The notes: generated from the sequence alone by a model not told the origin. Numbered from the stretch's first letter, positions 32,068-58,233 are shown. The stretch is 64,000 bases of DNA from Sulfurimonas sp. (GCF_016744025.1 NZ_JADGFC010000001.1:16028-80027); one strand, 5' to 3'. Numbers and translations: made by a program.

Positions 32068-32328
32068 ATGGTAAGTATACAAGATTTAAAGGGAAAAATT
32101 ATTGAAGGTTTAAACCTTGAGGATATTAGTGCTGATGAAATTGAAGATGATATGGCACTTTTTGGTGACGAAGGACTAGGCCTTGATTCTGTAGATGCAA
32201 TTGAGCTAACACTTATTTTAGAAAAAGAGTTTGGAGTTAAAGTGACAAATATGGCTGAAGCTGAGAACATATTTGCGTCTTGTACATCTCTTACTTCATA
32301 CATAAATGAGCAACTAAAAGTTGACTAA
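32068..32328 (+). CDS. Acyl carrier protein (cluster ACP 1)
   Basis: 86 aa. Phosphopantetheine attachment motif GLGLDSVDAIEL. Confidence 0.85.
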   Translation: MVSIQDLKGKIIEGLNLEDISADEIEDDMALFGDEGLGLDSVDAIELTLILEKEFGVKVTNMAEAENIFASCTSLTSYINEQLKVD

Positions 32329-33424
32329 GACATACATAACTGCTACTTCTTTACGGAGTGCATCTGGGGCAACACAAGATTCAATATATGATGTATTCAA
32401 CAAAAAAAGTGCTTTATGTGTTTATGACGACATTATACATGAGAAAAAAATTTGCATAGGAAAGTTTAAAAAAGATTTTACTTTTAATGAACTTCTTATA
32501 CAAAGTGTTCAAGAAGTTTTGGGTGCTTCTAATCTAAAAGATTTTTCAAGTACACTCTTACTAGTTGGTTCATCAGTTGGTGGAATGGCAACAACAGAAA
32601 AAATTCTATTTAAAGAAAACAATTACGAAAAAATCAATCCACAAAAACATAGTATCAATGTTATAGCTTCTACCTTAGATAATCAATTTAATTTTTTAGC
32701 AAATCGTTCATATTCTACAGCTTGTACATCCAGTGCAAATGCTTTAAAAACTGCAAAAGATCTTATATCTTTAAAAGCATATGAAAATATTTTAATAATT
32801 GGTGCCGATGAGATATGCTCAACAACTATCTTTGGGTTCAGTTCTTTAGGTATTTTATCAGATGAGATATGTACCCCTTTTAAACAAGATAGAAAAGGGA
32901 TGAATGTAGCAGAGGGTATTGGAGTACTTCTACTACAAAATAAACCTAATAAAAACTCAATTGAGCTTTGTGGTGCTGGAGCTAGTAGCGATGCTTATCA
33001 TATCGCAAATCCAGATCCAACTTCCGCTGGAGCAATATCTGCTATAAAAAAAGCACTTATAGATGCCAATATAGACGCTTCTCAGATTAACTATATAAAC
33101 GCTCATGGGACAGGAACACAGGCAAACGATGAATCTGAAGCAAATGCAATTATAGATATTTTCGGTACTGATGTAGCCGTTAGTTCATCTAAATCAAATT
33201 TGGGACATACTCTTGGTGCTGCTGGAGCAATAGAAGCAATTATATGCGCAGAAGCTTTAAAAAGACAGATCTTTCCTCCTCAACTTGACTGTACGCAAAA
33301 AGAAAAAGAGATTAACCTAGTTGCAGAGCCAAAAGAGTCAAAGATAAATTACGTACTAAGTAACTCTTTTGCTTTTGGCGGTAATAATGTTTCTCTTGTT
33401 TTTGGAGTTTATAATGAAAATTAA
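32321..33424 (+). CDS. Beta-ketoacyl-ACP synthase (type II KS, set 1)
   Basis: Active-site Cys in STACTSSANAL. His motifs NAHGTGTQAND and LGHTLGAAG. C-terminal FAFGGNN. Confidence 0.85.
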   Translation: MTKTYITATSLRSASGATQDSIYDVFNKKSALCVYDDIIHEKKICIGKFKKDFTFNELLIQSVQEVLGASNLKDFSSTLLLVGSSVGGMATTEKILFKENNYEKINPQKHSINVIASTLDNQFNFLANRSYSTACTSSANALKTAKDLISLKAYENILIIGADEICSTTIFGFSSLGILSDEICTPFKQDRKGMNVAEGIGVLLLQNKPNKNSIELCGAGASSDAYHIANPDPTSAGAISAIKKALIDANIDASQINYINAHGTGTQANDESEANAIIDIFGTDVAVSSSKSNLGHTLGAAGAIEAIICAEALKRQIFPPQLDCTQKEKEINLVAEPKESKINYVLSNSFAFGGNNVSLVFGVYNEN

Positions 33425-34055
33425 CGTAGAAATTATTAAAAAAGCTCTTATTCATCATCCTCTTCAAATTGAAAAATTAAATGAAAAAGAACTTGTTAAA
33501 AAAATGATGATAAGACGTAGGCTAAGTCGAAATTCTAAAATATTGGTCTACCTTGCTAATGAATGTGAGTTTAAAACTGGGCGAGTAATTTATGGTAGTG
33601 CTTATGGTGAACTAGGTGATAGTGTTAAAATTTTAGAAGCTATAAATGCTAAAGAAATGGTAAGTCCTACTACTTTTCAAAACTCTGTTTATAATACTGC
33701 TCCATCTTATCACTCTATCGTTGAGGGAAATACAGATGAGATAACAACTATTTCATCTGGGGATAATACTTCATATACTGTTATGCAAGAAGGAGCCCTA
33801 GCTCTACATAAGTGTGATGAAGTATTTGTTTGTACAGCAGAGGCAATGAACTTTGATGGAGTTGATATTTTAAATAAATGCAAAAATGAGCTTGAATACG
33901 GTGTTGCTTTTGTAATTAAAAAAGCAGTAGATGAAGCAAATATAATTGTTAAAAGCGACTCTAGAATAGGTGTCCCAAAATCTATAGAGTGGATGCAAAA
34001 CTTATATGATTTATGTGAGAGTAATGATAGATGCATCATAGAGGTTGAATTATGA
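33414..34055 (+). CDS. KS-partner / chain-length-factor-like protein (no active-site Cys)
   Basis: Start overlaps the KS stop. 213 aa. Same position and size as Cys-less KS-beta partners of aryl-polyene clusters. Confidence 0.5.
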   Translation: MKINVEIIKKALIHHPLQIEKLNEKELVKKMMIRRRLSRNSKILVYLANECEFKTGRVIYGSAYGELGDSVKILEAINAKEMVSPTTFQNSVYNTAPSYHSIVEGNTDEITTISSGDNTSYTVMQEGALALHKCDEVFVCTAEAMNFDGVDILNKCKNELEYGVAFVIKKAVDEANIIVKSDSRIGVPKSIEWMQNLYDLCESNDRCIIEVEL

Positions 34056-34402
34056 TAAAACTAAATTTACCACATCAAGCACCCGTAAGATTTGCAAAAT
34101 ATATTATTTCAAAAGATGAAACTTCGGCTATTGTTAGAGCTGAGTTTGAGTCTTTACCATCTCTAGCTATGTTAGTTGAAGCGGCAGCACAGAGCAGTGC
34201 TGCATTTAGTGATGGTAAAGGGAAAATGGGATTTTTAGTAACCCTAAAGAATGTTAAACTTATACAAGAAGCAAAAGTTTTAAAGTATGATATTACAGTC
34301 ACTTATCAACATGCACTAGAAGCACTAACATATTTTAGTTTTGAAGTAAACGATGATAATACACTTGTAGCATCTGGTGTTTTTGTTATCGCTTTGCAGT
34401 GA
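34052..34402 (+). CDS. Hot-dog-fold 3-hydroxyacyl-ACP dehydratase-like protein
   Basis: 116 aa. N-terminal LPHQAPVRFAKYI resembles the LPH..P...(V/I) entry motif of FabZ-like/APE dehydratases. 4-nt overlap with the upstream gene. Confidence 0.45.
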   Translation: MIKLNLPHQAPVRFAKYIISKDETSAIVRAEFESLPSLAMLVEAAAQSSAAFSDGKGKMGFLVTLKNVKLIQEAKVLKYDITVTYQHALEALTYFSFEVNDDNTLVASGVFVIALQ

Positions 34403-34476: not shown

Positions 34477-35022
34477 ATGAAAAGAATCATATCTATAATA
34501 AGTTTACTATTAACGACATTTGTATTAATAGGTTGTGGAGCAGCAAAATTGTCCCCAGCTCAACAAGAACTGGTTAAATCTAATGCTACTATGTATACTA
34601 AGGTATCTATGTGGACAGAAAAAAATAGGGTTTATGGAACTAACTATTCAAGAGGTTTACACATTCCAATAAATACTGAAGTTAAAATTTTAGCTGTATC
34701 TTCAAAAGTTATAACATTTGAATACATGGGTTCTAAAATAAACTATTATGTATATACAAAATATACCAAAGTTGATGCTGCTGGAACTTTAGATAGATTA
34801 TTCTCTAAAACTAAAGTAGATTTATCAATGTATTCTGAAGATACTCTACAAAATATATTAGATGGAAAAATTGTTGTTGGAATGACAAAAGAAGAAGTGG
34901 TTTTATCTCGCGGATACCCTCCATTTCACGCAACAATATCTTTAAAAGCAGATGTATGGAAATATTGGAATAATAGATTTCAGACAATTGAAGTTAGGTT
35001 TGAAGACAATAAAGTTATATAA
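34477..35022 (+). CDS. Lipoprotein with BamE/SmpA-OmlA-like C-terminal domain (paralog of 46099..46698)
   Basis: Lipobox LIGC. GMTKEEVVLSRGYPP...VWKYW. Collinear similarity to 46099..46698. Confidence 0.6.
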   Translation: MKRIISIISLLLTTFVLIGCGAAKLSPAQQELVKSNATMYTKVSMWTEKNRVYGTNYSRGLHIPINTEVKILAVSSKVITFEYMGSKINYYVYTKYTKVDAAGTLDRLFSKTKVDLSMYSEDTLQNILDGKIVVGMTKEEVVLSRGYPPFHATISLKADVWKYWNNRFQTIEVRFEDNKVI

Positions 35023-35062: not shown

Positions 35063-35087
35063 TGTAAGGCTAGTTTTTAGCCTTACA
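35063..35087. terminator. Hairpin between convergent genes
   Basis: TGTAAGGCTA-gtttt-TAGCCTTACA: perfect 10-bp stem overlapping the stop codon of the methyltransferase gene. Confidence 0.5.
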
Positions 35088-36134
35088 TATCATTAGTGTG
35101 TGCCCAAATCCAAGACCATTAATCTCTTCTTCAACTTCAAGTCCAGCTTCATCAACAAACTTTGACATTTCACTAGCTCTATACATCTTACTAGTACCAT
35201 TTGCTAATGCGCTAAAATATGGTGATGTATTTATTAGACAATAAGATCCTATTTCATGAGTTTGCCTATCCCAAAAAGGTTCTACTATATAAACTCGGCC
35301 ATCTTTATTTAATGCTTCTTTAGAACGTTTTAATAAAGCTATAATATCTTTTGGAGCAAAACAATCTAAAAACTGACTCATCCAAACACCATCAAAATCT
35401 TTAGGAAAGTCTATTGTATGATCAAGTAAATTTATAGCCTTACCATTTACTCTATCACCTACACCTTTTAAATCAGCATTTTGCATAGCAACATCTATCT
35501 GTCCCTGATGATCTAATATTGTAACAGTTGTAGATGGAGATGCTGTGGTTAATGCTATTGACCATTTTCCAGTATTTCCACCTGGTTCAAGAAGTTTTTT
35601 TATTCCGCGCTTACTCATAATATCTACTAATTTTACAAATGCCGCATCTGAGTAAAAGTGATCAAAACCAAACCAACTTTTTTTTGCTTTGGGAGGTAGT
35701 TTTGAAAGTATAGGATAAATCGTTTCTTCTTTAGAAAATGTTTGATGAAGACCTGATGGTTTTTGAGATTTAAGTGCTTCATCGAGGAAGAAAAGACCTT
35801 GATAATTGACATCATGATTAAAATCCATATTGACTTTTGTCATCTCATCATTAAGTAAAAAGTAGCCTATTTTTGTAAGAGTGTATATATCCCCTTCTAA
35901 TTTAAGAGCCCCCATACTAAAACCTGATTCACATAAAATTTGTGCAGCATATAGAGTCAAACCTAGTTTTTCACTTATAATTTCTACACTAAAGCCATTT
36001 TTATTATCTTCTAAAAGTTTAAAAACACCCCAATCACGTAATAGTCTCGCTGATTGGAAAACAACTGCTCCAAAAGCAATCTTTTGAGCTTCTAGTAGGG
36101 CTTCTGCGCCATTACGTTGAGTGTCATCAAACAT
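35070..36134 (-). CDS. SAM-dependent O-methyltransferase (class I, family-2-like with N-terminal dimerisation/winged-helix region)
   Basis: SAM motif I LLEPGGNTGKWS, then acidic ILD and later DGVWMSQFLDCF post-motifs. Confidence 0.7.
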   Translation of the reverse strand: MFDDTQRNGAEALLEAQKIAFGAVVFQSARLLRDWGVFKLLEDNKNGFSVEIISEKLGLTLYAAQILCESGFSMGALKLEGDIYTLTKIGYFLLNDEMTKVNMDFNHDVNYQGLFFLDEALKSQKPSGLHQTFSKEETIYPILSKLPPKAKKSWFGFDHFYSDAAFVKLVDIMSKRGIKKLLEPGGNTGKWSIALTTASPSTTVTILDHQGQIDVAMQNADLKGVGDRVNGKAINLLDHTIDFPKDFDGVWMSQFLDCFAPKDIIALLKRSKEALNKDGRVYIVEPFWDRQTHEIGSYCLINTSPYFSALANGTSKMYRASEMSKFVDEAGLEVEEEINGLGFGHTLMICKAKN

Positions 36135-36503: not shown

Positions 36504-36797
36504 ATGATGCATAAGCAACTATATAATATAGATTTTAAAGATGACAACAGTGCTATAATAACTCTTTGCGATGAAAATCATCCAATATTTAAAGCCCACT
36601 TTCCATCCCAACCAATACTCCCAGGTTTTATTCATTTTGAAATAATATCTGATATTTTCCAACTAGATATTACTACAATCAAAAAAGCAAAATTTACTAA
36701 AGTCATATCACCTTCTCAGACAATCAAGTATGAAAAAAACAATAACAAATTTAAAGTATTTTGCCAAGATGCAGAGGTAGCAAGTTTTAGCCTATGA
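36504..36797 (+). CDS. FabA/FabZ-like hot-dog dehydratase
   Basis: 97 aa with catalytic-His motif HFPSQPILPGFIHFE. Confidence 0.65.
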   Translation: MMHKQLYNIDFKDDNSAIITLCDENHPIFKAHFPSQPILPGFIHFEIISDIFQLDITTIKKAKFTKVISPSQTIKYEKNNNKFKVFCQDAEVASFSL

Positions 36798-37480
36798 ATT
36801 TTTGTATAGTTATTCCCGTTTACAACTCCCCATATATTAGAGAAGTTATCCAAGATGTTTTAAGCTATAACTACAAAGTTGTGGTAGTAGATGATGGTTC
36901 TTCAACACCTATAGATGTGCAAGAATTAGATATAGAGTTAGTTACTCATTCTTCTAATATGGGCAAAGGTGAGGCCATTTTAAGTGGTGCAAAAAAAGCA
37001 AAAGAGTTAGGTTTCAACTCATTTGTCAGCGTAGATGCAGACAAACAGCATCTAAGCTCACAGATTCAAAAACTAACAGATGCTTACGAAGATGAAACTA
37101 TTGTAATAGGAAACCGAGATTTCGAGCAAGAGAATATTCCTAATAGTTCAAAATTTGGTAGAAAATTTAGCAACTTCTGGGTTATGCTAGAGACTCTCAA
37201 AGCTTTAGGCGATACGCAGAGCGGTTTTAGAATGTACCCTGTTTCTATTTTAGACCTGCCCCTTACAAATCGACGTTTTGATTTTGAAGTAGAGATTTTA
37301 GTCCATCATTCATATAGAGGTGCAAAGATTAAAGATGTAGAAGTTGAGTGCTACTATCCACCGCACGAGGAGAGAGTTTCTCACTTTGACAAGCTTTGGG
37401 ACAATGTACACATAACTCTTCTTCACATAAAATTGCTTATGCAAAGATATCTTTTACTTAGAGGCTGGTTGTGGAGATAA
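36794..37480 (+). CDS. Family 2 glycosyltransferase
   Basis: VIPVYNS...VVVVDDGS...VSVDADKQH motifs. Confidence 0.8.
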   Translation: MNFCIVIPVYNSPYIREVIQDVLSYNYKVVVVDDGSSTPIDVQELDIELVTHSSNMGKGEAILSGAKKAKELGFNSFVSVDADKQHLSSQIQKLTDAYEDETIVIGNRDFEQENIPNSSKFGRKFSNFWVMLETLKALGDTQSGFRMYPVSILDLPLTNRRFDFEVEILVHHSYRGAKIKDVEVECYYPPHEERVSHFDKLWDNVHITLLHIKLLMQRYLLLRGWLWR

Positions 37481-38319
37481 AACAAAGAGGAAATGCATTT
37501 GGCTATAAACTACTGCTTTTTGCATATAGTGTTCTTGGTTATAACTTAGTTGTTTTTATACTAAACTTTGTTGCACTTTACTACCTACTTTTTGCACCAA
37601 GTGTGAAAAAATCAATGCAGAGTTATTATGATAACATAGGCATTAAATTAACAAATACAAGCTATTTTAATCACTTAAAAATGTTTGCTATATCAATTTT
37701 TGACAGATTTGTCTCTCGTATAAAACCGCAAGACTTAAGCTTTTGTATTCACAATAATGACGTTATCAAAACACTCAATGAAAATGGAGGAGTAATTCTG
37801 CTTTCTCATGTTGGAAGTTGGGCGAGTGCTGCCCACTGTTTAAGTGATGAACTACCACCAATGAGCATAGTAATGCGTGAAAACACTAAAGAAAACATCC
37901 AAGAAGTAGAAAAAAATAGAGAAAGAGTAAATGAGCAAAGAGTAAAGATTATAGACCTCAATCAAGGTGCAATTCTTGCTAATATTCAAATAGCAAATGC
38001 TCTTATGAACAAAGAGTTAGTGGCAATGATGGCAGATAGAGCAGTTGATAAGACTAAAACCATAGAAGTAAAATTTTTAGACAAAAAAGTACTTATAAAC
38101 AAAAACCCTTTTGAAATTGCACTTAGAGTCAAAAAACCTCTTGTAGCCATCTTTGTTACTAACAACTCACTAAATAAATATGACCTAGCACTAGAGCTGA
38201 TTAAAGAGTCTTCACTGGAACAAATGTCGCAAGACTATGCAGATGTCTTACAAAATACAATAAGAGAATATCCCAATCAATGGTATAATTTCTACGATTT
38301 TTTTAAAAAGATGAATTAA
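37471..38319 (+). CDS. LpxL/HtrB-like lysophospholipid (lipid A-type) acyltransferase
   Basis: N-terminal TM helices. LSHVGSWA resembles the H.GNWE active-site region of the LpxL family. Same role as the acyltransferase of APE clusters. Confidence 0.6.
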   Translation: MEIKQRGNAFGYKLLLFAYSVLGYNLVVFILNFVALYYLLFAPSVKKSMQSYYDNIGIKLTNTSYFNHLKMFAISIFDRFVSRIKPQDLSFCIHNNDVIKTLNENGGVILLSHVGSWASAAHCLSDELPPMSIVMRENTKENIQEVEKNRERVNEQRVKIIDLNQGAILANIQIANALMNKELVAMMADRAVDKTKTIEVKFLDKKVLINKNPFEIALRVKKPLVAIFVTNNSLNKYDLALELIKESSLEQMSQDYADVLQNTIREYPNQWYNFYDFFKKMN

Positions 38320-39230
38320 TGAAAAAAATTTTAATACTTTACTACTCACAATCAGGACAACTCAAACGAGTTTTAGACAGCTTCTTATCAGACTTAGAAG
38401 ATGAAGAGATAAAGCTGGATATTAAAGAAATAACACCAAAAGTAAAGTACCCATTTCCTTGGCCCTTTTACCAGTTTTTTGATGAATTTCCAGAATCTGT
38501 TTTCTTGGACGGGTGCGAGATTAATGAGCTTGAAGATTTGGAAGATGATTATGACATGATTATTTTGGGATATACGGTTTGGTATATGGCTCCATCTATT
38601 CCTATCACTGCCTTTATGCACTCTGAACAAGCTAAAAAAGTATTTAAAGACAAACCTGTAGTAACTCTTGTAGCTTGTCGTGACATGTGGGTTTTAGCTC
38701 AAGAAAAAGTAAAAGAGATGCTAAAAGCTGTTGATGCTAAACTTATCGACCATGTGGCTTTAACAGATCAAGGAGGAAGTGTTCTTAGTCTTGTAACACT
38801 CCCAGGTTTTCTTTTAACAGGAAAGAAAAAACCTTTTATGTTTTTTCCGCCTGCGGGAATCAAAGACTCAGATATTCAAGAAGCTTCAAGATTTGGGAAA
38901 AGACTAAATGAAGCCCTTCACCAAGACAAAGAAAAAAGTGGTGAAGCTCTACTAAAAAACTTAAATGCAGTAAGCGTAAATGGTAAACTTATAGCTACTG
39001 AGAAAATTGCAGACAGAAGTTTTAAAATCTGGAGCAGACTTATTAAAGCATCAGGGGAGAAGTACTCTTTTGGCAGAAAAGTTATAATCTCTATCTACGT
39101 TTGTTTTTTAATAACTTTGCTATTAACTGTCGTTCCTTTAAATATATTAGCAAGAAAAATTTTAAATATATTTCAAAAAGATAAACTAAAAATTATGGAA
39201 GACTATTATGAATTACCAAGTGGAAGATAA
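38319..39230 (+). CDS. darA: DarA-like protein (flavodoxin-like fold, C-terminal membrane helix); putative dialkylresorcinol aromatase
   Basis: N-terminus MKKILILYYSQSGQLKRV matches my recollection of DarA-annotated proteins. ~300 aa; encoded immediately upstream of a KAS III-like gene, as in dar loci. Confidence 0.5.
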   Translation: MKKILILYYSQSGQLKRVLDSFLSDLEDEEIKLDIKEITPKVKYPFPWPFYQFFDEFPESVFLDGCEINELEDLEDDYDMIILGYTVWYMAPSIPITAFMHSEQAKKVFKDKPVVTLVACRDMWVLAQEKVKEMLKAVDAKLIDHVALTDQGGSVLSLVTLPGFLLTGKKKPFMFFPPAGIKDSDIQEASRFGKRLNEALHQDKEKSGEALLKNLNAVSVNGKLIATEKIADRSFKIWSRLIKASGEKYSFGRKVIISIYVCFLITLLLTVVPLNILARKILNIFQKDKLKIMEDYYELPSGR

Positions 39231-39236: not shown

Positions 39237-40385
39237 ATGTTAAGAGAAGTATACATTAATAAAATATCAGCATTTTTACCAAATGAAGCTGTTGACAATG
39301 AAAATATAGAAAAAGTACTCGGACAAGTTGGAGATAGACCTTCTCGTGCAAAAAGAATCATACTTAGATCAAATAAAATAACAAATAGATACTATGCAAT
39401 TGATCCTAATACAAGAGAAGCTACTCATTCTAATGCACAACTTACAGCTCAAGCTATAAGAAAACTTAAAAAAGATGGTCTTGATCTAGATAGTGTTGAT
39501 GTTTTAGCATGTGGTACAACAATGCCTGATCAACTGATGCCAAATCATGCCATTATGGTTCACGGTGAACTTAAATGCAAACCACTTGAAGTAGTATCTA
39601 CTGCAGGAATTTGTCTTAGTGGAATTACTGCACTAAAATATGCTTACACTTCTATCAAATCAGGAGAAGCAGAGTCTGCTGTTGCAACTGGAAGCGAAAA
39701 CTCATCAGCAATAATGAGAGCTGAAAACTTTACTCCTGAGATAGAAAATAAAGTTGAGATGCTGGAAAAAAATCAAGAAATAGCTTTTGAAAAAGATTTT
39801 TTAAGATGGATGCTAAGCGATGGTGCTGGAGCAATGGCACTCAGTGCCAAAGCAAATGAAAATTCTCTCTCTCTTAAGATAAACAAAATCTTCTCTATAT
39901 CTTATGCAAATATTTTAGACACTTGTATGTACTCTGGATGTGAAAAACTTGAAGATGGTTCAACTAAAAGCTGGAGACAATATACTCCAAAAGAGTGGCT
40001 ACATAAGTCTATATTTTCTGTTAAACAAGATGTAAAACTTCTAAATGAAAATGTTATGGAATATACTGTTGCACAAGCTTTAATGGTAATGCTGGAAAAA
40101 CAGATGTTCAATCCGCAGGAAATAGACTGGTTTTTACCTCACTACTCATCTGGTTACTTTAGAGATGAAGTTTACGAGAAGATGTTAAAAGCAGGCTGTG
40201 ATATACCTCAAGAGAAGTGGTTTACAAACCTATCTACAAAAGGTAATACAGGCTCAGCATCTATATATATTATGTTAGAAGAGCTTTTTAACTCAGCCAA
40301 TGTGAAAAAAGGCGAAAAACTTTTATGCTACATTCCTGAGAGCGGACGATTTTCCACAGCTTTCATGCTACTAGAGGCTGTGTAA
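39237..40385 (+). CDS. darB: KAS III-like ketosynthase, DarB-like (putative dialkylresorcinol condensing enzyme)
   Basis: Thiolase fold. Cys in STAGICLSGITAL. C-terminal KGNTGSASIYIML as in FabH-like enzymes. The DarB assignment rests on pairing with the DarA-like gene. Confidence 0.6.
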   Translation: MLREVYINKISAFLPNEAVDNENIEKVLGQVGDRPSRAKRIILRSNKITNRYYAIDPNTREATHSNAQLTAQAIRKLKKDGLDLDSVDVLACGTTMPDQLMPNHAIMVHGELKCKPLEVVSTAGICLSGITALKYAYTSIKSGEAESAVATGSENSSAIMRAENFTPEIENKVEMLEKNQEIAFEKDFLRWMLSDGAGAMALSAKANENSLSLKINKIFSISYANILDTCMYSGCEKLEDGSTKSWRQYTPKEWLHKSIFSVKQDVKLLNENVMEYTVAQALMVMLEKQMFNPQEIDWFLPHYSSGYFRDEVYEKMLKAGCDIPQEKWFTNLSTKGNTGSASIYIMLEELFNSANVKKGEKLLCYIPESGRFSTAFMLLEAV

Positions 40386-40801
40386 TGGATATCAATGATG
40401 TTCCTCAAGAAGATAGTTCAACATACGCAAAAAATAAAAAAGCTATCTATGCAAAAAGTGAAAATGGTGAAATAAGCATAGTAGGGTCAACTGGTTGGAA
40501 TGTAGAGGAGACTGCTACAAAACTAGCCCTTGAAGACTTAGAATCTAGTGCTCACGAGGCATACTGTGAAGTTAAAAAAGGTATTAAATCACCTCTATTT
40601 TATTATATGTTTAAAGAGAGAATGGACTTGCAACTATTAGCCGAGACAAGCGGTTTTTTTAAGTGGACTATTTCTCGTGATTTTAAACCAGAAGTTTTTA
40701 AAAAGATAAGCGATAAAAGACTATCGGTTTATGCAGAAGTTCTAGGAATAACTATAGAAAATTTAAAAGTATTGGAAGACATAAATTATGAATGTAACTG
40801 A
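40385..40801 (+). CDS. Hypothetical protein with HTH-like C-terminal half
   Basis: 138 aa. LAETSGFFKWTISRDFKPEVF...VYAEVLGITIENL resembles an XRE-like HTH. Translationally coupled on both sides. Confidence 0.35.
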   Translation: MDINDVPQEDSSTYAKNKKAIYAKSENGEISIVGSTGWNVEETATKLALEDLESSAHEAYCEVKKGIKSPLFYYMFKERMDLQLLAETSGFFKWTISRDFKPEVFKKISDKRLSVYAEVLGITIENLKVLEDINYECN

Positions 40802-50336: not shown

Positions 50337-50349
50337 AAAAGGAGAAAAG

Positions 50350-51773
50350 ATGAATGACATTATATTTATAAACCCTCCCTATGAGCAAATTGCACCTGGG
50401 AATGATCATGTTAAACATGTTATAAATAGATCACCATCTTTAGGACTTTTATTATTAGCTGCTCAAGCTAGAAAAGACGGATATTCTCCAAAAATCATAG
50501 AGAGTGACTTAGAAAATTTATCTCCTCAAACCGTAGCAAATATGGTTCTTGAAATAAATCCAAAGTTTGTGGGCATCACACTTTTTACAGTAGGTGTTTT
50601 TAATGCTGCAATCATAGCCAAACTAATTAAAGAAAAAAATCCTAATATCGTAATTATGGTAGGTGGCCCACATATATCTTCTATGGGTTTTGAGACTATG
50701 CAAAAATTTGAAAATTTTGATATTGCAGCTCTTTATGAAGGTGAATTGATACTTAATAAACTACTCTCAAGTATAGAAAACAATGATCCTCTAGAAGAAG
50801 TTCAAGGAATAGTATACAGAGACGAAAATAACACTTTAAGAAGAACCCCTCCTCCACCAAGTATAAAAGACTTAGACTCACTGCCCATCCCAGCGTGGGA
50901 CCTTTTACCAAATTTTCCGAAAGCCTATCTTCCAGCAATTTTTGACTACCCAAGAGCTCCAGTTGCTACTTATTCTGCTTCAAGAGGTTGTCCTTTTAAA
51001 TGTGAATTTTGTGACACTTCAACCTTTGGTACCAAAATCAGATATAACTCATCAAAAAAAGTACATGAGATTATGAAGCATTTGAGTCTAGAATATGGGA
51101 TTAAACATTTGCAGTTTGTTGATGATCTTTTTGTTGCTAATAATGCTAAAGTATTAGAGTTATGTGAACTTTTAATTACAGATAAGGTTGATATGACTTG
51201 GAGTTGTACAGCTAGAGTTGATACTGTTAAGCCAGATACATTAAAAAAAATGAAAGAAGCTGGATGCTGGGAAATTAGCTTTGGATTAGAGAGTGGTTCT
51301 GATGAAATGCTCAAAAATATGAAAAAATCAATTACAGCTGAAGTATCTGCTCGCGCTGTAAATTGGACTAGTGAAGCTGGAATCAGAGTAAAAGGCCTAT
51401 TTATGTTGGGTTATCCAGGAGAAACTAAAGAGAGTGTTAAAGTAACAAAAGAGTTTATTAAAAGTCTTCCTCTGACAACAATGAATCTCTCAAAATTTAC
51501 TCCATATCCAGGATCACAATTTATAAAAAGCTATACGGAACATCTATTAGAGAAGAAGATTGGGATAGACTTAACGGTATGAATTTTGTGTATAAAGCAG
51601 AGGCTTTTACTCAAGAAGAGCTCGACTATGAGTATAAAGAAGTAATTACTACATTTTACAAACGTGTTAAAATACTACTTCACTATCAAAATATGGCACT
51701 ATCCAACCCTACGCATATAAAGAGACTTTTACTCTTTTTTCTAGGGTTTATGAAAAAAAAGTTAAGGACTTAA
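50350..51773 (+). pseudogene. B12-binding radical SAM enzyme interrupted by a single-nucleotide frameshift near 51520-51530 (pseudogene, sequence error or recoding)
   Basis: Cobalamin-binding-like N-domain (FVGITLFT...IVIMVGGPHIS) and radical SAM CPFKCEFC. Frame A ends ...FTPYPGSQF, then junk and TGA at 51582. The other frame, open from 51462, reads YKKLYGTSIREEDWDRLNGMNFVYKAEAFTQEEL and continues into ORF 51579..51773. Confidence 0.65.
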
Positions 51774-51774: not shown

Positions 51775-53004
51775 ATGAGAAGAGTTGTAATCACAGGTGT
51801 TGGTTTAAATTCACCACTAGGAAATAGCTATGAAGAACTTTACGAAAATTTAAAGAATGAGAAATGTGGGATTGAGTATGTTCCTGAGTGGGATGAAATA
51901 GATTATTTCGGAACAAAAATTGCCGGTGTAGTAAAGGATGTTGATTTAAAATCTATTCCAAGAAAATACCGCCGTTCAATGGATAGAGTAGCTCAACTTA
52001 GTGCAGTCTCAACTTCAGATGCAATCAATGACGCAAACTTAAACCAAGAAACTCTTAGTTCAAAAAGATGTGGTATTGCCTTTGGTTCAACTATGGGAGG
52101 AAATGAAACTCTTTTTGAGTATATCCCCGAAGTAAAAGAGAAGATGAGCTTTAGAGGACAAAATTCTATGGCATTTCTAAAAATAATGAGCCATACAGTA
52201 GCTGCAAACTTAGCACAGATGTTCTCAATTAAAGGTCGTAATATTCCTACATGTTCAGCTTGTACATCATCAGCACAAGCAATTGGAGCCGGTTATGAAA
52301 GTATTAAATATGGGATGAGTGATATCATGATATGTGGTGGGGCTGAAGGGCTTCATTATTTAGCTGGTGGAGTTTTTGATGTTATGGGTGCTGCAGCTAC
52401 AAAACATAATCATGAACCAACACTTGCATCTCGTCCATTTGATGAGAGTCGTGATGGATTAGTATTAGGAGAAGGAAGTGGCGCCTTAGTTTTAGAAGAA
52501 CTTGAACACGCTTTAGCTCGCGATGCTAAGATATATGGAGAAGTAATTGGATATGCAACATCTTGTGATGGCGAGCATATAACAACTCCATCTAAAGAGG
52601 GAATGATGCAGGTAATGGAGACATCTCTAGAAGATGCTTGTATTAAAGCACAAGATATTGAATATATTAATGCTCACGCTACTGCAACTCAAATGGGAGA
52701 TATAGCAGAATCAAATGCTACCTTTAATCTTTTTGGCTCTGAGACACCAGTTAGTAGTACAAAAGGTCATATGGGACATCTTCTAGGCGGATGTGGTGTT
52801 GTTGAAAGCATTATCTGTCTTATTGCATTAAACAAGTCATTTTTACCAAAAACAATGAACTTTAAAACATTAGATAAAAATTGCGCAAATATCAACGTTT
52901 TAGGAAAAAACATGCTAAAAGATATTACAATTGCGATGAATAATAACTTTGCATTTGGTGGGATTAACAGCTCACTTATTTTTAAAGACTACAAAGGTAA
53001 ATAA
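51775..53004 (+). CDS. FabF/FabB-type beta-ketoacyl-ACP synthase (KS 3)
   Basis: SACTSSAQAI (Cys), NAHATATQMGD and GHMGHLLGGCG (His), FAFGGINSSL. Confidence 0.9.
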   Translation: MRRVVITGVGLNSPLGNSYEELYENLKNEKCGIEYVPEWDEIDYFGTKIAGVVKDVDLKSIPRKYRRSMDRVAQLSAVSTSDAINDANLNQETLSSKRCGIAFGSTMGGNETLFEYIPEVKEKMSFRGQNSMAFLKIMSHTVAANLAQMFSIKGRNIPTCSACTSSAQAIGAGYESIKYGMSDIMICGGAEGLHYLAGGVFDVMGAAATKHNHEPTLASRPFDESRDGLVLGEGSGALVLEELEHALARDAKIYGEVIGYATSCDGEHITTPSKEGMMQVMETSLEDACIKAQDIEYINAHATATQMGDIAESNATFNLFGSETPVSSTKGHMGHLLGGCGVVESIICLIALNKSFLPKTMNFKTLDKNCANINVLGKNMLKDITIAMNNNFAFGGINSSLIFKDYKGK

Positions 53005-53006
53005 TA

Positions 53007-53255
53007 ATGACACGTGAAGATGTATATGACAAGATAGTATCTGTATTAGTTGAAGAGTTTGAAGTTGAAGCAGATGATATAAAAATGGAAGCCAACTTAT
53101 TTACAGACTTAGAACTAGACTCTCTAGATGCTATAGATTTAATGGTTACACTAGACAAAGAGCTAGGTATCGAGATAAAAACAGAAGAGATGAAAGACAT
53201 TAGAACAATATCTGATGTGTGTGATTTCGCTTTAGCTGCTAATGAAGATGAGTAG
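53007..53255 (+). CDS. Acyl carrier protein (cluster ACP 3)
   Basis: 82 aa. DLELDSLDAIDL attachment motif. Confidence 0.85.
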   Translation: MTREDVYDKIVSVLVEEFEVEADDIKMEANLFTDLELDSLDAIDLMVTLDKELGIEIKTEEMKDIRTISDVCDFALAANEDE

Positions 53256-53790
53256 TGTCTTTACACTACTTTTTGCTCCAAGCTTTTTAATATTTCTACA
53301 CTACTTTGAATTTAAAGTAGTTCTTAGCATATATATCGTCCTATCAATACTACTTTTTATATTCACATACATAAAACATAAATTTTCTAAAAACTTACTA
53401 ATTCCAACTATATACTTTTCATTACTTTTAATTTCATACTTTTTTGCCAGTTTTACAATAATTAAATTTATTCCAGTTATTATTTCAATGATGTTTCTTA
53501 CTCTCTTTATTGATGCTACAATTAATAAAAGAGAACTCATTCTTAAATTTACACAAAAATTTTATCCAAAAAAATTAGCTAAAGAAGAGATTGCTTTTTT
53601 AAAAAATGGCGATAAATATTGGGTTTGGGTTATTTCTATATCTACTATATTCCAATTTGCACTTATTTTTTATGATGATGTTTTTTGGGCATTTTATAGC
53701 TCTGCAGGTTGGTATATGTTTTTCTTTATATCTTTGATTATTCAGATACTTTATGGGAGGTTCTATGCGATTAGGTTGTATAGCAAGTAG
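53242..53790 (+). CDS. Polytopic membrane protein (same position as ApeG-type membrane proteins)
   Basis: 182 aa with 5-6 TM helices. No catalytic motif recognised. Confidence 0.4.
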   Translation: MKMSSVFTLLFAPSFLIFLHYFEFKVVLSIYIVLSILLFIFTYIKHKFSKNLLIPTIYFSLLLISYFFASFTIIKFIPVIISMMFLTLFIDATINKRELILKFTQKFYPKKLAKEEIAFLKNGDKYWVWVISISTIFQFALIFYDDVFWAFYSSAGWYMFFFISLIIQILYGRFYAIRLYSK

Positions 53791-54490
53791 TTTTGCATTT
53801 ATACTTTTTTTTGGTCTTATTGGGTTGTTCGTATTCCCCTCACTAATCATTTATGCACTCTTTTATCCATTTGATAAGTACCCTCAAGATAAGTTTCAAT
53901 ATCTGTCTTCTGTAATTTACAAAATCTTTTTTGCTCTTATGCCTGGAATCAGACTTGATATCAATTTGTCAGAGAATCTTCCAGATAGTGCTATTTATGT
54001 TTCAACACATCAGTCAAACTTAGACTACCCTATCTTGGGTTATTTTATAAAAAAATATATAATTATGACTAATATGAATTTTAAAAAAATTCCATTTATC
54101 TCTCAAGTAGGTCACCTTATAGGAATAAGACATTTAGACAAAAGAAACCTTGGCAAGATTAATAATACATACATGGAATTTGAGCAGATGCTAAAAGAAA
54201 ATAGAAATATAGTTTTTTTTGTAGAAGGTACTCGTGGCAATGGAATAACTCTTGGTAAATTTAAAAAAGGTGCTTTTCGTTTAGCTATGAAGATGAATAA
54301 ACCTATTGTTCCAGTAGTTATCCAAGGAACAGGAGATATTCTCTCAAAAGGAAATTTTTGTTTCTCACACAATAGAGAATCAAAGATCAGAGTCCGGACA
54401 TTAGATGCTATCTATCCAGATAAGTTTTCTAATGAAAACGATATGCTAAAATACACATATAAAATAATGAGTGAGTCATGTCAAAAATAA
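53765..54490 (+). CDS. PlsC-family 1-acyl-sn-glycerol-3-phosphate acyltransferase-like protein
   Basis: HX4D motif STHQSNLD and FFVEGTRG motif. GGGAGG RBS 5 nt before ATG 53765. Confidence 0.85.
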   Translation: MRLGCIASSFAFILFFGLIGLFVFPSLIIYALFYPFDKYPQDKFQYLSSVIYKIFFALMPGIRLDINLSENLPDSAIYVSTHQSNLDYPILGYFIKKYIIMTNMNFKKIPFISQVGHLIGIRHLDKRNLGKINNTYMEFEQMLKENRNIVFFVEGTRGNGITLGKFKKGAFRLAMKMNKPIVPVVIQGTGDILSKGNFCFSHNRESKIRVRTLDAIYPDKFSNENDMLKYTYKIMSESCQK

Positions 54491-54963
54491 TCATACTAAT
54501 TTTTAGCTTTTTAATAGCAAATGCAAATACTTTTAACTTTACTGAACTTAGATATAGTGATGCTCTGGGTAGTAGCATGGAACTTCACGGTGAGATTAGT
54601 TTTTTTAAAAATGGTTTATCTATAAACTATGTTGATGCTAAAAAAACTCTGCAGCTAAATGATTCAATACTAACTTATAAAGAAGACATGCAAGTAGTCC
54701 CTCTTGATGAAGAGCGAAGTGAACAGATTACTCAATACCTAGAAACAGTATTTTTACTTCATAGTGGTGATAATGAGTTATTAAATAGCATGTTTGATAT
54801 AGAAACTATTAATGAAAAAAGCATACTAAAACCAATAGGAAGTATTAGTTATTTCGTTTCTTCAATTGAATTGAGTAAAGATAAGAATACAATAAAAGAA
54901 GTAAAACTTTTTTTGAAAAACAGTGATGAAATAACAATAAAAATAGATAATGAAATACGCTAA
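54478..54963 (+). CDS. Periplasmic LolA-like carrier protein (assignment by context)
   Basis: Signal peptide, ~160 aa. Sits between the acyltransferase and the MMPL-type exporter, as the LolA-like gene does in APE clusters. Sequence evidence is weak. Confidence 0.4.
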   Translation: MSKIIILIFSFLIANANTFNFTELRYSDALGSSMELHGEISFFKNGLSINYVDAKKTLQLNDSILTYKEDMQVVPLDEERSEQITQYLETVFLLHSGDNELLNSMFDIETINEKSILKPIGSISYFVSSIELSKDKNTIKEVKLFLKNSDEITIKIDNEIR

Positions 54964-57052
54964 CTACATAATTCTTACCCTTCTTCTTGGGCTAGCTTTT
55001 TTACTTAAAGAACATATAAATATATCTACAAACTTACTATCACTATTTGCGTCTGAGGAATCCATCAAGAAGTTAAATATTGCTTCTAAACTAGGCTACT
55101 CCAAAGAGATGCTAATCGCAGTAAAAGGCTTTGATAATTCTTCAAAAACAAAGCTTCTTGAACTCTCCAAAAAGTTAAATAAGCTGGATGGCATAAAAAG
55201 CGTACAATCTACTTTAACACCTTCTAAGAAGCAACTTGATTACTACAAAAAAAACTACCCTCTTCTAACTTCTTTTAATGATGAAATTCAAAACGCTCAA
55301 AGTATAAGAGAGAAACTTCAAAATTCTTATAATGAAATGACCACAAATATTTTTTACTCAAATATTGATAAAAATGATCCTCTGAAGCTTTTCAATCTAG
55401 AAAGAAAAAAGACAAGCCTCTCTCATAAGGGAGAGTATTTAGCACTTGGAGGGTATGGATATCTTATGCGTGTAAGTACTGATGTTTCCGCCTCTGATAT
55501 TAGTAAAGCAAAAATTTTATATGAAGAAGTAAACTCAATTTTAAATGAGTATTCTGATGTTGTTGCTTTCGCTCCATTTTTTTATACGGTTGAAAATTCT
55601 ACAAAGATTAAAGCTGATGTAAAATGGATAATTCTTCTATCGTCCATAGTTCTAATCCTAATTTACTATATACTCATAAAAAATATTCGCTTACTCTCAC
55701 ATACATTATTAGCCCTATTCTCTTCTATGGTATCTGCAACTCTTGTTAGTACTATGTTATATCCAAATTTCAATGTTTTATCCTTAGCTTTTGGTATGAG
55801 TATAACCGCGGTTAGCATTGATTATCTTCTTCATTATTATTTTCATAACTTCTATCAAGATAAAAGTATCGTAGATAAAAATGTTCTTTATGGATTTTTA
55901 ACTACAACAGTAGCCTTTGGAATTTTTTCTTTAATCCCTATTCCAATTATTTCACAAATAAGTTTCTTCGCAGTTCTTTCGCTATCTTTTGCTTATTTTT
56001 TGTTTACGTTTATTTTCAAAAAACTCAATATATCTGAGTATAGACAAGATGCAGTTATTAGTTCTAAGTCTAAAAAATTATCATCTTCTACTTTTTTTAT
56101 ATTTTCTCTTATGCTAATAAGTTTTAGTATATATAATCTTTCTCTAGATAATAATATTAGAAATTTAGACTATCAAAATACAAAACTTATAAATACAGAA
56201 AACTTTTTTAAATCATCCATAAAAACAAATCTAAAACCAGTAATCATACAAGCAAAGTCAAAAGATGAACTTATGAATAATCTTCATTTACTACATTATG
56301 AACTCCCTAGTAGCTTCTCTTTAGCTTCTTTTGTTCAAGACAAAAAAAGCTGTGAGAAAAGAAGAAAGTTACTACAAAATTATGATTTCTCAAATCTAAA
56401 CACCATCTTAAATATTGAAGCTTCTAAGATAGGATTTAGAGACTCTTACTTTAAAGATGCATATTCATTCACTAAAGATATACCAAAATGTAAAATACCT
56501 AATCTAGAAATATTCAACTCTTATAATCTCTATATATACAATGATAAAAGTACTTATTATACTATGGCTTTTATAGATGATATGTCAAAAGCCTCTATCT
56601 TTAGTTTTGTATCAGATATAGATGTTAAAAAGATGTTTTCCCAACAAGCTGATAAGATGTATGATGATTTAGCTTTATATTCCAGTTTAGTTATTACAGC
56701 TGTTTTCATACTACTTTTCTTTAGTGTAAAGACAAAATTTTTATACGCTTTAAACTATATAATATTTCCTTCTAGTTTTGTACTTGCTATTTTAAGTGCT
56801 ATTTACACTATAAATCTTATGCATCTATTTTCTCTTATTATACTAATAGCTATTGGGATTGACTACGGAATTTACATGAGTAATACAAGTAAAAAATCTA
56901 ATACTATTTTAGCAATAAGATACTCTTTACTTAGTACTTTTGCAGGTTTTGGAGTATTAGCTTTTAGCTCTATAGTAGCATTGCAGTCTATTGGAATAGT
57001 CATTATCTTAGGTGTTATATCAATTTTTATACTTATTAGGAGTCAAAAGTGA
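54950..57052 (+). CDS. MMPL/RND-like membrane exporter
   Basis: 700 aa. Two blocks of ~5-6 TM helices, each preceded by a soluble domain. Confidence 0.65.
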   Translation: MKYANYIILTLLLGLAFLLKEHINISTNLLSLFASEESIKKLNIASKLGYSKEMLIAVKGFDNSSKTKLLELSKKLNKLDGIKSVQSTLTPSKKQLDYYKKNYPLLTSFNDEIQNAQSIREKLQNSYNEMTTNIFYSNIDKNDPLKLFNLERKKTSLSHKGEYLALGGYGYLMRVSTDVSASDISKAKILYEEVNSILNEYSDVVAFAPFFYTVENSTKIKADVKWIILLSSIVLILIYYILIKNIRLLSHTLLALFSSMVSATLVSTMLYPNFNVLSLAFGMSITAVSIDYLLHYYFHNFYQDKSIVDKNVLYGFLTTTVAFGIFSLIPIPIISQISFFAVLSLSFAYFLFTFIFKKLNISEYRQDAVISSKSKKLSSSTFFIFSLMLISFSIYNLSLDNNIRNLDYQNTKLINTENFFKSSIKTNLKPVIIQAKSKDELMNNLHLLHYELPSSFSLASFVQDKKSCEKRRKLLQNYDFSNLNTILNIEASKIGFRDSYFKDAYSFTKDIPKCKIPNLEIFNSYNLYIYNDKSTYYTMAFIDDMSKASIFSFVSDIDVKKMFSQQADKMYDDLALYSSLVITAVFILLFFSVKTKFLYALNYIIFPSSFVLAILSAIYTINLMHLFSLIILIAIGIDYGIYMSNTSKKSNTILAIRYSLLSTFAGFGVLAFSSIVALQSIGIVIILGVISIFILIRSQK

Positions 57053-58233
57053 CTTTAGAATATATTCATAAAGATTCTTCAAGAGAAATCATAAATTTGA
57101 ATCTCACTCAAGAAATTACAAACAATTGGATAAATATAGATTCTAGTTCTAAAAAAGAGTTTGTACAAGCTTTTATACCTGCCTTTAATAGCGGACAAAA
57201 GATTGTTCTCTTTGACAAAAATCATACTAAACTTCTAAAGTTTTACAAAGAAAATGATCTTAATAGTTTTGAAGGTATGAATGAAGTAAATAAGATTGCA
57301 AAACTTCTTTTTTTTACATCTGGAAGCACTGGTTTTCCGGTTGGTGCTTTTAAAAGCAAAGAAAACATTTTAAAAGAAGTAGAAGTACTAAAGAATTTGT
57401 TAAATGATTTTAATATTAAACGTGTTGTTGTAAGCGTCCCTTTTATTCATATATACGGGATATTAGCAGGACTTCTGCTACCTTTGCATCTAGAGGATAT
57501 CTCTCTAATTGTTAAAGAAGATTTTTTGCCATATGAATTACTTGAAGAAGCTTCATATGATGATACTTTAATTATTACAACTCCCTTGTTTATAAAAGCA
57601 CTTTGCAAAGTTAGTGATGACAAAGAACTAACTAAGAGCTTGTTTATATCCTCTACTGGCCCTCTGCATCTAGATGATGTAACTCTTTTTCAAAATAGGT
57701 ATAAGACTACACTAATACAACTATTTGGCTCAACAGAGACTGGTGGAATAGCTTATAAAAAAGGTATTAATAAAGAGTGGGATAGTCTAATGTATGTAGA
57801 TATAAAAAGTGAAGATGAAAGGTTAGCTCTTAGTTCTCCATTCATATCTAAGTACCTTTTAGAAAATACTATTAAAGAGATTAGACAACCTTTTCAAACT
57901 CAAGATATAGTTGAAATAAATGATAATAAATTTACACTCTTAGGACGAGCTAATAAGCTTATAAAAATAGCTGGAAAAAGGATTTCTGCATTAGAAATAG
58001 AGTCTATAATCGAGACTATTCCTAGTGTAGTTAAAGCAGTAGTTAGTTTAGTTTATAAAAAAGAGTTATTAAGAAGTGAACAAATTTTAATTACTTTACA
58101 AACTGAAAATAAAATAGACAAAAAACTTATAAAAGAAAAAATTGCACAAAATTTTGGAACTCTTACTATTCCATTTAAAGTAGAATATGTTGATACAATC
58201 AACTACTCTTCAATGGGTAAAGTAATTTTTTAA
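57049..58233 (+). CDS. AMP-dependent synthetase/ligase (aryl-acid or acyl-ACP ligase)
   Basis: AMP-binding core FFTSGSTGFPVG, later FGSTETGG and C-terminal GKRI..LEIE. GTG start overlaps the upstream stop. Confidence 0.8.
   Translation: MTLEYIHKDSSREIINLNLTQEITNNWINIDSSSKKEFVQAFIPAFNSGQKIVLFDKNHTKLLKFYKENDLNSFEGMNEVNKIAKLLFFTSGSTGFPVGAFKSKENILKEVEVLKNLLNDFNIKRVVVSVPFIHIYGILAGLLLPLHLEDISLIVKEDFLPYELLEEASYDDTLIITTPLFIKALCKVSDDKELTKSLFISSTGPLHLDDVTLFQNRYKTTLIQLFGSTETGGIAYKKGINKEWDSLMYVDIKSEDERLALSSPFISKYLLENTIKEIRQPFQTQDIVEINDNKFTLLGRANKLIKIAGKRISALEIESIIETIPSVVKAVVSLVYKKELLRSEQILITLQTENKIDKKLIKEKIAQNFGTLTIPFKVEYVDTINYSSMGKVIF

Follow-up and report, generated by a model that had tools for sequence, protein, structure and literature searches.

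The subject of this analysis is a 26-kb gene cluster occupying positions 32068-58233 of a 64,000-nt stretch of DNA from Sulfurimonas sp. (GCF_016744025.1 NZ_JADGFC010000001.1:16028-80027), the whole of which is referred to as the window. Thirty open reading frames (ORFs) are listed within the cluster, 29 on the plus strand and one (35070-36134) on the minus strand, and most neighbors overlap or are separated by gaps of fewer than 10 nt. An earlier, sequence-only reading of the stretch had counted about 31 genes, all but two of them co-oriented; the tight, nearly co-directional array is as it described, but the count is 30, with a single minus-strand gene. Its second minus-strand gene may have been a lipoprotein gene (58244-58852, minus strand) that adjoins the cluster at its 3' end, just outside the range given above, and is unrelated to the pair of lipoprotein genes considered below. 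The flanks are where that reading placed them, with mgtE (30563-31891, minus strand) on the left and eno and recA (59951-62270, minus strand) on the right. The fraction of G + C is uniform over the window, at about 0.29-0.33. No tRNA genes were found in the window or at the borders of the cluster, and an Rfam scan of the window produced no matches. With no GC anomaly and no border tRNA, no support was found for a recent genomic island. Since GC content is uniform, tRNA genes are absent, and the same layout is found in Sulfurimonas gotlandica GD1, the cluster looks like a resident part of the Sulfurimonas chromosome.

Matches to Pfam or NCBIfam families were obtained for 23 of the 30 genes, and every ORF is full length except the gene encoding a B12-binding radical S-adenosylmethionine (SAM) protein. 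These matches bear out most of the inventory drawn up earlier from the sequence: three acyl carrier proteins (ACPs), a ketoacyl synthase of the KAS III type, a FabG-type reductase, an ammonia-lyase of the methylideneimidazolone (MIO) type, and an AMP-binding enzyme, along with (by Pfam) a methyltransferase, a GT2 glycosyltransferase, LpxL-like and PlsC-like acyltransferases, a BtrH-like protein, ABC and ABC-2 transporter components, a CrtI-like flavoprotein, and the radical SAM protein. The three ketosynthases (KSs) with Cys-His-His and the two partners lacking the cysteine are also as claimed (alignment A1). All genes described below are on the plus strand unless stated otherwise.

One group of genes is related to those of aryl-polyene synthases. 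ACP1, the carrier protein of the polyene module (32068-32328; PF00550, with an LDSVD serine), has as its closest NCBIfam model PRK09184, at 66 bits against a cutoff of 70. It is followed by KS1 (32321-33424; PF00109, PF02801), whose Cys-His-His residues lie in TACTSS, HGTGT, and GH motifs in alignment A1 and which is closest to PRK09185 (299 bits, under the cutoff of 407), and then by CLF1 (33369-34055), a KS partner of the chain-length-factor (CLF) type that matches PF13723 (Ketoacyl-synt_2) with 80.6 bits (cutoff 25) and in the same alignment lacks the active-site cysteine. Farther downstream lie a FabG/FlxB-like ketoreductase (KR; 48313-49017; PF13561, PF00106), which passes the FabG subfamily model PRK12826.1-2 and scores 267 bits with FlxB, under the cutoff of 340; KS3 (51775-53004; PF00109, PF02801), a FabF/FabB-like elongating ketosynthase with Cys-His-His in A1 and 431 bits against PRK09116 (cutoff 470); and ACP3 (53007-53255; PF00550, with an LDSLD serine), which passes PRK05350 with 87.5 bits (cutoff 65). 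The last gene of the cluster encodes a short AMP-dependent ligase (57049-58233; PF00501), predicted to activate an aryl acid; its best NCBIfam matches, PRK08308 and the 4-coumarate-CoA ligase TIGR02372, are both below cutoff. The one minus-strand gene (35070-36134) encodes a FlxJ-like SAM methyltransferase (PF21212, PF00891; 435 bits with NCBIfam FlxJ, under the cutoff of 560). Catalytic residues are intact in all three KSs, in all three ACPs (the DS(L/V)D serine), and in the MIO motif of the lyase.

The two hot-dog dehydratases previously proposed differ in standing. ORF 36504 (36504-36797, 97 amino acids) resembles a FabA/ApeI-like dehydratase subunit at sub-threshold scores (22.1 bits with FabA and 15.9 bits with the ApeI-like model, whose cutoff is 28.5), and the identical protein, like its orthologues, has a precomputed PF22818 annotation. 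ORF 34052 (34052-34402, 116 amino acids), putatively a hot-dog dehydratase or thioesterase, has LPHxxPxxF and EAAAQS motifs that are conserved across seven orthologues (alignment A3); it has no Pfam match at E-values up to 10, and its sole match among PDB profiles is a weak one to FabZ 4h4g (E=0.9).

The MIO aromatic amino-acid ammonia-lyase (46746-48260) matches PF00221 with 470 bits and carries ASG at residues 138-140. It falls below the curated cutoffs for histidine ammonia-lyase (HAL; 378 bits of a required 524) and for FlxA (339 of 700). Its motifs were read by alignment to Pseudomonas putida HAL. The second motif is NQDK in the window (and NQD throughout the lyases compared), and the HAL glutamate is missing. 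Because of this motif and the precedent of FlxA taken up below, histidine is an unlikely substrate, and since there are also no hut genes near the lyase, a role as HAL is unlikely.

The third component is a block of nine genes for the formation of a dialkylresorcinol (DAR). The first, ORF 38319 (38319-39230, 303 amino acids), has the position of DarA, the DAR aromatase, an assignment made from adjacency to darB and from homology. The gene at this position is always immediately upstream of darB, and more than 60 loci, those of the Azoarcus group and of Bacteroidota included, have next to darB a gene 33-79% identical to that of the window; the protein has a flavodoxin-like N-terminal region (2mwm, E=7e-6) and a C-terminal transmembrane (TM) helix. 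DarB (39237-40385), the DAR-forming ketosynthase of the KAS III type, matches the NCBIfam StlD/DarB family with 607 bits (cutoff 450), and scores 527 bits with the narrower "exception" model resorcinol_DarB, under its cutoff of 550. Then come a DarG-family protein (40385-40801; 168 bits, cutoff 70) at the position that is darD in Azoarcus, which reaches 126 bits with the equivalog model flexirubin_DarG (cutoff 170), and DarH (40788-41789; PF14399, PF16169), an acyltransferase related to BtrH that matches DarH_acyl with 493 bits (cutoff 300). The family cutoffs of StlD/DarB, DarG, and DarH are thus all passed. The block continues with an ABC transporter ATPase (41793-42668; PF00005), syntenic in nearly all DAR loci, an ABC-2 permease with six TM segments (42661-43797; PF12698, PF01061), ACP2 at the DarC position (43797-44054; PF00550, LDSLD serine), KS2 at the DarJ position (44056-45177; PF00109 and PF02801, Cys-His-His in A1), and CLF2 at the DarK position (45174-45974), which has weak similarity to the N-terminus of fabF, lacks the cysteine in A1, and follows KS2 in DAR loci.

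Comparison of all window proteins (by tblastn) with DarB-bearing loci showed the order DarA-DarB-DarG-DarH-ABC-ABC2-ACP-KS-CLF to be kept in nearly all of them, most of the longer loci examined included; besides Azoarcus, about 60 loci share it. In Azoarcus sp. BH72 the order is identical (darA, darB, darD, darE, which is BtrH-like, darF, an ABC protein, darI, a permease, darC, an ACP, darJ, a KS, and darK), and it is because of this identity of order that ORF 38319 is taken to be DarA. The sequence-only reading had set the BtrH-like protein and the ABC-2 exporter among extra genes pointing to a modified product, a view that cannot be maintained, as both belong to the core of a nine-gene module conserved from Azoarcus to Bacteroidota.

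Schöner et al. 2014 (PMC3949708) defined flexirubin-type clusters as polyene clusters that contain a gene with a phenylalanine ammonia-lyase (PAL)/HAL domain, together with DAR genes. The window contains all of these: for the polyene part, three KSs with a PF13723 CLF, the three ACPs, the FabG-type reductase, and the ApeI-like protein, the PAL/HAL-domain gene inside it, and homologues of darA and darB contiguous with the polyene genes, the arrangement termed "fused". The YjgF/YER057c/UK114-like domain of XanB2, which would have signified a xanthomonadin or arcuflavin starter, is absent from the 30 ORFs. Matches to FlxA, FlxB, and FlxJ do not reach the cutoffs set for Bacteroidota equivalogs, so that these proteins are related to their Bacteroidota namesakes but are not equivalogs of them. 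Judged by its gene content and order, the locus is very probably a chromosomal, vertically inherited, fused flexirubin-type biosynthetic cluster of a Sulfurimonas species. The core of the sequence-only reading, an aryl-polyene plus DAR cluster of flexirubin type, is upheld by the MIO lyase, the AMP-ligase, DarA and DarB, and the genes for membrane localization.

Its suggestion that such a cluster would be new to Campylobacterota is not upheld. Table S7 of Schöner et al. lists as "flexirubin, fused" the clusters of Arcobacter nitrofigilis strain DSM 7299 (genes Arnit_2308-2331), Sulfurospirillum barnesii SES-3 (Sulba_2237-2263), and Sulfurospirillum deleyianum strain DSM 6946 (genes Sdel_2097-2124), and the same authors noted that flexirubin is not usable as a chemotaxonomic marker of Bacteroidetes. 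These Epsilonproteobacteria clusters, known here by that listing, belong to the same phylum and class as the window and have a PAL/HAL-domain gene fused to DAR genes. In its account of the organism, the genome paper of S. deleyianum (PMC3035281, citing Zöphel et al. 1991) ascribes the yellow color of the colonies to a flexirubin-type pigment. DarB relatives, moreover, occur in at least 36 species genomes of Campylobacterota. The narrower claim, that no such pigment has been characterized in sulfur-oxidizing or denitrifying members such as Sulfurimonas, is not contradicted by the searchable literature: no paper there mentions Sulfurimonas together with aryl polyenes, and the lone match of the genus with flexirubin was irrelevant.

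The resemblance to the flx clusters of Bacteroidota (flxA-flxY plus darAB of Chitinophaga pinensis; Fjoh_1078-1110 of Flavobacterium johnsoniae) extends over initiation by lyase and aryl-acid ligase, the type II KS/CLF/ACP/KR/dehydratase set, the methyltransferase, DarA/DarB/DarG/DarH with the ABC transporter, and the GT2, acyltransferase, LolA-like, and exporter genes. One Bacteroidota locus (L078) has an order comparable to that of the window, running from a putative tyrosine ammonia-lyase (TAL) through KR, KS3, ACP3, LpxL, and DarA to DarB. However, identity is only 33-51%, the selectivity switch of the lyase is Phe in the window and Ser in a Bacteroidota cluster lyase, no polysaccharide-deacetylase gene was found in the window, and the window adds the CrtI-like subfamily, the radical SAM gene, and the paralogous lipoproteins. 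Azoarcus BH72, with the same DAR order, makes arcuflavin, a xanthomonadin-DAR hybrid identified by mass spectrometry as a polyene-dialkylresorcinol ester, and insertion mutants show its polyene clusters to be essential for pigment. Unlike the window, it has no lyase but is primed with 3-hydroxybenzoate made by a XanB2-type chorismatase, and its polyene genes lie in clusters apart from the DAR genes. The ape clusters of E. coli and Vibrio, compared by description, share the KS with its PF13723 CLF (a clear match), two types of ACP, a short AMP-ligase, a GT2, and a lipid A-type acyltransferase, and would also share the ApeI-like dehydratase, the LolA-like protein, and the MMPL-type exporter, which in the window are more tentative assignments. 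They start from 4-hydroxybenzoate and are not known to contain a DAR module or an ammonia-lyase.

The closest relatives are within the genus, across which the cluster proteins are strongly conserved. DarB of the window is 98% identical to that of a Sulfurimonas metagenome-assembled genome (MAG), 86-87% to that of S. gotlandica GD1, and 79% to that of S. lithotrophica, and more than 100 further DarB protein clusters are at least 75% identical. In GD1 (L082) the layout equals that of the window from mgtE through ACP-KS-CLF to the B12-radical SAM gene, by way of the opposite-strand methyltransferase, the ApeI-like, GT2, and LpxL-like genes, the nine-gene DAR module, the lyase, the reductase, and an amine-oxidase-like gene. 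The GD1 locus also carries, at 3011-5166 and on the opposite strand, caspase-like Peptidase_C14 and LPP20-like genes between those for the 116-amino-acid hot-dog protein and the lipoprotein.

When DarB was compared with species-representative genomes, 167 relatives were found, of which the best 80 were examined by lineage label. Campylobacterota account for 36 of those 80: Sulfurimonas, Sulfurovum, Sulfurospirillum, Arcobacteraceae, Sulfurovaceae, and MAGs labeled "Helicobacteraceae" or "Campylobacteraceae". Others among the 80 belong to Desulfocapsa/Desulfobulbaceae (59-65% identity), Vibrionaceae (62%), and Bacteroidota (50-51%), as well as to Marinobacter, Dechloromonas, Azonexus, Azoarcus, and Brenneria. 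The lyase and the same set of genes adjoin the DAR module in genomes of Sulfurovum, Arcobacteraceae, Sulfurovaceae, and Sulfurospirillum, and the Sulfurospirillum, Arcobacteraceae, and Sulfurovum loci have the same modules, with DarB and lyase 58-76% identical to those of the window. The usual order in Campylobacterota is ApeI-GT2-[DAR module]-KS1-CLF1-lyase-KR-Mem182 (Mem182 being a membrane protein described below), whereas in the window and in S. gotlandica KS1 and CLF1 are at the 5' end, next to mgtE. A contig labeled as uncultured Gammaproteobacteria (L011) encodes a DarB 74% identical to that of the window, a level otherwise confined to Campylobacterota; the reason may be mis-binning of the contig or a recent transfer of the cluster.

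The remaining genes, apart from two to which we return, would be concerned with membranes and transport. The GT2 glycosyltransferase (36794-37480; PF00535, 67 bits) is followed by the LpxL-like (lipid A-type) acyltransferase (37471-38319; PF03279, 53.6 bits), and the PlsC-like acyltransferase (53753-54490; PF01553, 88 bits) by a secreted LolA-like protein of 161 amino acids with a signal peptide (54478-54963). The LolA-like designation, though without any sequence match, is favored by the fold: the model is of low confidence (pLDDT 46), and its top 29 Foldseek matches in PDB are all LolA or LolB (E=1.7e-4 to 8e-3). Similarly, the supposed MMPL-type exporter (54950-57052, 700 amino acids), a divergent member of the MMPL/RND type, has no direct Pfam match but does have 12 TM segments in a 1+5/1+5 layout with two large loops, like RND proteins. 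Its assignment comes only through six distant full-length homologues that match PF03176 above threshold, a match to HpnN (E=0.04) being lost when a seven-sequence profile was used; an exact-match look-up of the exporter and of P0206 returned no record. Mem182 (53242-53790, 182 amino acids), an integral membrane protein with five TM segments and no family match, has orthologues that follow KR in other Campylobacterota clusters. Two lipoproteins are paralogues, 34% identical (E=2e-38), with an SRGYPP motif and a weakly BamE-like C-terminus in common: one of 181 amino acids (34477-35022), with a signal peptide followed by Cys, the other of 199 (46099-46698). Orthologues of the first adjoin darA in other Sulfurimonas; the second is absent from this position in S. 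gotlandica GD1. For ORFs 34052, 34477, 46099, 53242, 54478, and 54950, searches of Pfam (E up to 10) and by phmmer of PDB gave nothing usable.

A pathway may be proposed by homology to the flx-dar systems of Chitinophaga and Flavobacterium and the arc-dar system of Azoarcus. The MIO lyase (46746) would deaminate tyrosine, or possibly phenylalanine, to (hydroxy)cinnamate, which the short AMP-ligase (57049) would activate and load onto an ACP. KS1/CLF1, KS3, ACP1 and ACP3, KR, the ApeI-like subunit, and the 116-amino-acid hot-dog protein would then build the aryl-polyene acyl chain, to be decorated by the FlxJ-like methyltransferase. In parallel with the polyene branch, DarB would condense and cyclize two fatty-acyl-derived units supplied by ACP2/KS2/CLF2, and DarA would aromatize the ring to a 2,5-dialkylresorcinol. 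An acyltransferase, for which DarH is the best candidate, would esterify the polyene acid to the resorcinol, and the GT2, LpxL-like, PlsC-like, LolA-like, MMPL-type, and ABC-2 proteins and the lipoproteins would localize the pigment to the outer membrane. The CrtI-like flavoprotein and the radical SAM protein (frameshifted here) are putative tailoring enzymes specific to the clade. The product would likely serve as an antioxidant or photoprotective membrane pigment of a microaerophile living at oxic-sulfidic interfaces.

Several considerations weigh against a flexirubin-type product. No pigment chemistry of Sulfurimonas was found in the searchable literature. FlxA, FlxB, and FlxJ matches lie under the Bacteroidota equivalog cutoffs, the lyase being only 33% identical to that of a Bacteroidota cluster. 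No thioesterase was identified, and for the ester-forming enzyme there is a candidate only. One gene of the cluster is frameshifted. DAR modules elsewhere without adjacent polyene genes imply that the two halves could make separate products, and the Phe at the lyase switch means that the aryl head may lack the phenolic hydroxyl that defines flexirubin behavior.

The last of these considerations leads to a pigment of the same general architecture, an aryl polyene joined to a DAR, but primed by phenylalanine and so started from cinnamate; lacking the para-hydroxyl, it would not show the classical color shift in KOH. The position of the S-H motif of HALs is occupied by F-L in PALs and by H-L in TALs. 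In the lyase of the window this motif (residues 71-80) is F-H, as it is in Sulfurimonas, and so has a PAL-like Phe where TALs have His; it is F-C in the lyases of Sulfurovum, Arcobacteraceae, Sulfurovaceae, and an uncultured Sulfurospirillum MAG, and S-H in the Bacteroidota flexirubin-cluster lyase. Cyanobacterial PALs are, moreover, the closest solved structures. However, C. pinensis FlxA, with the same mixed motif signature, defies prediction from motifs, having proved experimentally to be a TAL 1000-fold selective for tyrosine (Schöner et al. 2014, PMC3949708). The F-C lyase of the uncultured Sulfurospirillum must likewise be set beside the flexirubin-type pigment that the account of S. deleyianum reports, and a phenolic or activated ring would be in keeping with the O-methyltransferase fold of the cluster's methyltransferase. 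Sequence alone does not decide between tyrosine and phenylalanine, but we consider a phenylalanine-primed pigment unlikely.

The main rival to a single ester holds that the cluster makes two products: an outer-membrane aryl-polyene lipid, like that of ape clusters, and a dialkylresorcinol in free form (or the cyclohexanedione that precedes it), which the ABC-2 system would export as a signal or antimicrobial. The DAR module is indeed self-contained, with its own ACP, KS/CLF, and ABC transporter, and it stands alone, with no polyene genes within 10 kb, in loci of Desulfocapsa, Vibrionaceae, Aliivibrio, and Dechloromonas. The GT2, LpxL-like, PlsC-like, LolA-like, and MMPL-type genes, for their part, make up the set by which ape lipids are attached and exported (compare the aryl-polyene cluster L087). 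But the fused layout with the lyase has been conserved over several families of Campylobacterota, one bearer of it, S. deleyianum, is described as having a flexirubin-type pigment, and even the separate polyene and DAR clusters of Azoarcus yield an ester, arcuflavin. DarH, too, is curated as an acyltransferase. Two separate products thus seem quite improbable.

The two genes left to consider lie between KR and KS3, a placement restricted to the Sulfurimonas clade among the Campylobacterota loci compared. The first encodes a carotenoid-desaturase-like (CrtI-like) oxidoreductase (49014-50336; PF01593, PF13450) dependent on flavin adenine dinucleotide (FAD), whose AlphaFold2 model (pLDDT 89) has as its best fold match the gamma-carotenoid desaturase 4rep (TM-score 0.78). 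About 100 protein clusters of the family are at least 53% identical, beyond which identity drops to 27% or less, and those members of the 53% set with named sources all come from Sulfurimonas or Campylobacterota. All three Sulfurimonas-type clusters that were examined (L082, L084, and L085) have the gene in the KR-KS3 interval. A distant homologue (P0346, 25% identical) lies inside the otherwise unrelated aryl-polyene cluster L087, and on this account an FAD oxidoreductase appears to be a recurrent accessory of aryl-polyene clusters. The sequence-only reading had taken the gene as a sign of a modified product; it does represent a subfamily of the clade, but the presence of a distant homologue in another aryl-polyene cluster deprives the sign of much of its force. 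The notion that it might be a canonical flexirubin gene of Bacteroidota was discarded, the Dyadobacter homologue (P0347) being in an unrelated context.

The second gene encodes the B12-binding radical SAM protein (50329-51773; PF02310, PF04055). A one-base frameshift near 51514-51520, where the window has GGATCACAATTT and intact relatives imply GGATCACCAATT, causes the ORF to end at 51582; the last 68 or so amino acids are encoded one frame on, in a stretch that begins at about 51520 and ends with a stop at 51771-51773, just before the start codon of KS3 at 51775. Intact homologues (P0122 and P0123, 474-478 amino acids) continue FTPYPGSPIYKKLYGTS. The NCBI protein from the same assembly (P0121, 410 amino acids) shares the truncated end, while P0122 (474 amino acids), 98% identical, is intact, and so the gene is either a genuine pseudogene or wrongly assembled. 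L082 and L084 have it, and L085 lacks it. A relative 61% identical lies at 10001-11500 in a gammaproteobacterial MAG (L083), far from any polyene or DAR genes, with a sensor kinase on one side and lnt/ybeY/phoH-like genes on the other, and this member in a housekeeping context rules out a family specific to pigment clusters. Frameshifted here, absent there, and related to a gene of housekeeping surroundings, the radical SAM gene makes a poor indicator of the modified product once suggested. Three of the four supposed extras are ordinary for such clusters, and it is the sole atypical one.

This frameshift, and the lack of any report of Sulfurimonas pigmentation in the searchable literature, might suggest that in this strain the locus is in decay or silent and no pigment is made. 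This is highly improbable, in that the remaining 29 ORFs have kept their full length and intact catalytic residues, the proteins show strong conservation within the genus, related clusters can do without the radical SAM gene (L085), and its intact counterpart in a 98% identical relative means that the frameshift may be an assembly error.

Variation in accessory genes is also seen elsewhere. The cluster of Sulfurimonas sp. CP093397 (L084) has, at 1989-10004, a tryptophan-halogenase-like gene and a second FAD oxidoreductase of 529 amino acids; its ketoreductase is called as two ORFs of 115 amino acids, which may reflect a frameshift. The presumptive tailoring genes thus vary within Sulfurimonas, with a radical SAM gene in the window and a halogenase in L084. 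In Desulfocapsaceae and Desulfobulbaceae, three DAR modules (L037, L046, and L069) are flanked by distant CrtI-like (22-24% identical) and B12-radical SAM (24-25%) genes, a pairing that may represent convergent recruitment or an old association.

The cluster adds the genus Sulfurimonas to fused flexirubin-type clusters already catalogued in 2014 and to a Sulfurospirillum pigment reported in 1991. The general picture is unchanged, since flexirubin-type clusters outside Bacteroidota, those of Campylobacterota included, had been catalogued before. What novelty remains would reside in the starter acid, the clade-specific desaturase-like flavoprotein, and the variable tailoring genes. It is possible, though rather unlikely, that the product of the Sulfurimonas clade is a flexirubin analogue of new structure, distinct from the types of Bacteroidota and of other Campylobacterota. 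The analogue could be set apart by the switch-Phe lyase, with a possibly non-phenolic head, and by the clade-restricted flavoprotein between KR and KS3, and in some strains the radical SAM protein or the halogenase could tailor the chain or the ring at very low oxygen. If it exists, it could be a biomarker of the lineage or an antioxidant adaptation of the sulfur oxidizers of pelagic redoxclines.

In marine redoxclines and at hydrothermal vents Sulfurimonas have a key part as denitrifying bacteria that detoxify sulfide, and no reports of pigments or natural products from them were found in the searchable literature. S. gotlandica GD1, with the same cluster, is in culture, so the prediction is directly testable. 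The conservation of a 26-kb cluster implies an investment by these microaerophiles in a membrane pigment of polyene type, which would likely protect them from oxygen radicals where oxic and sulfidic conditions meet.

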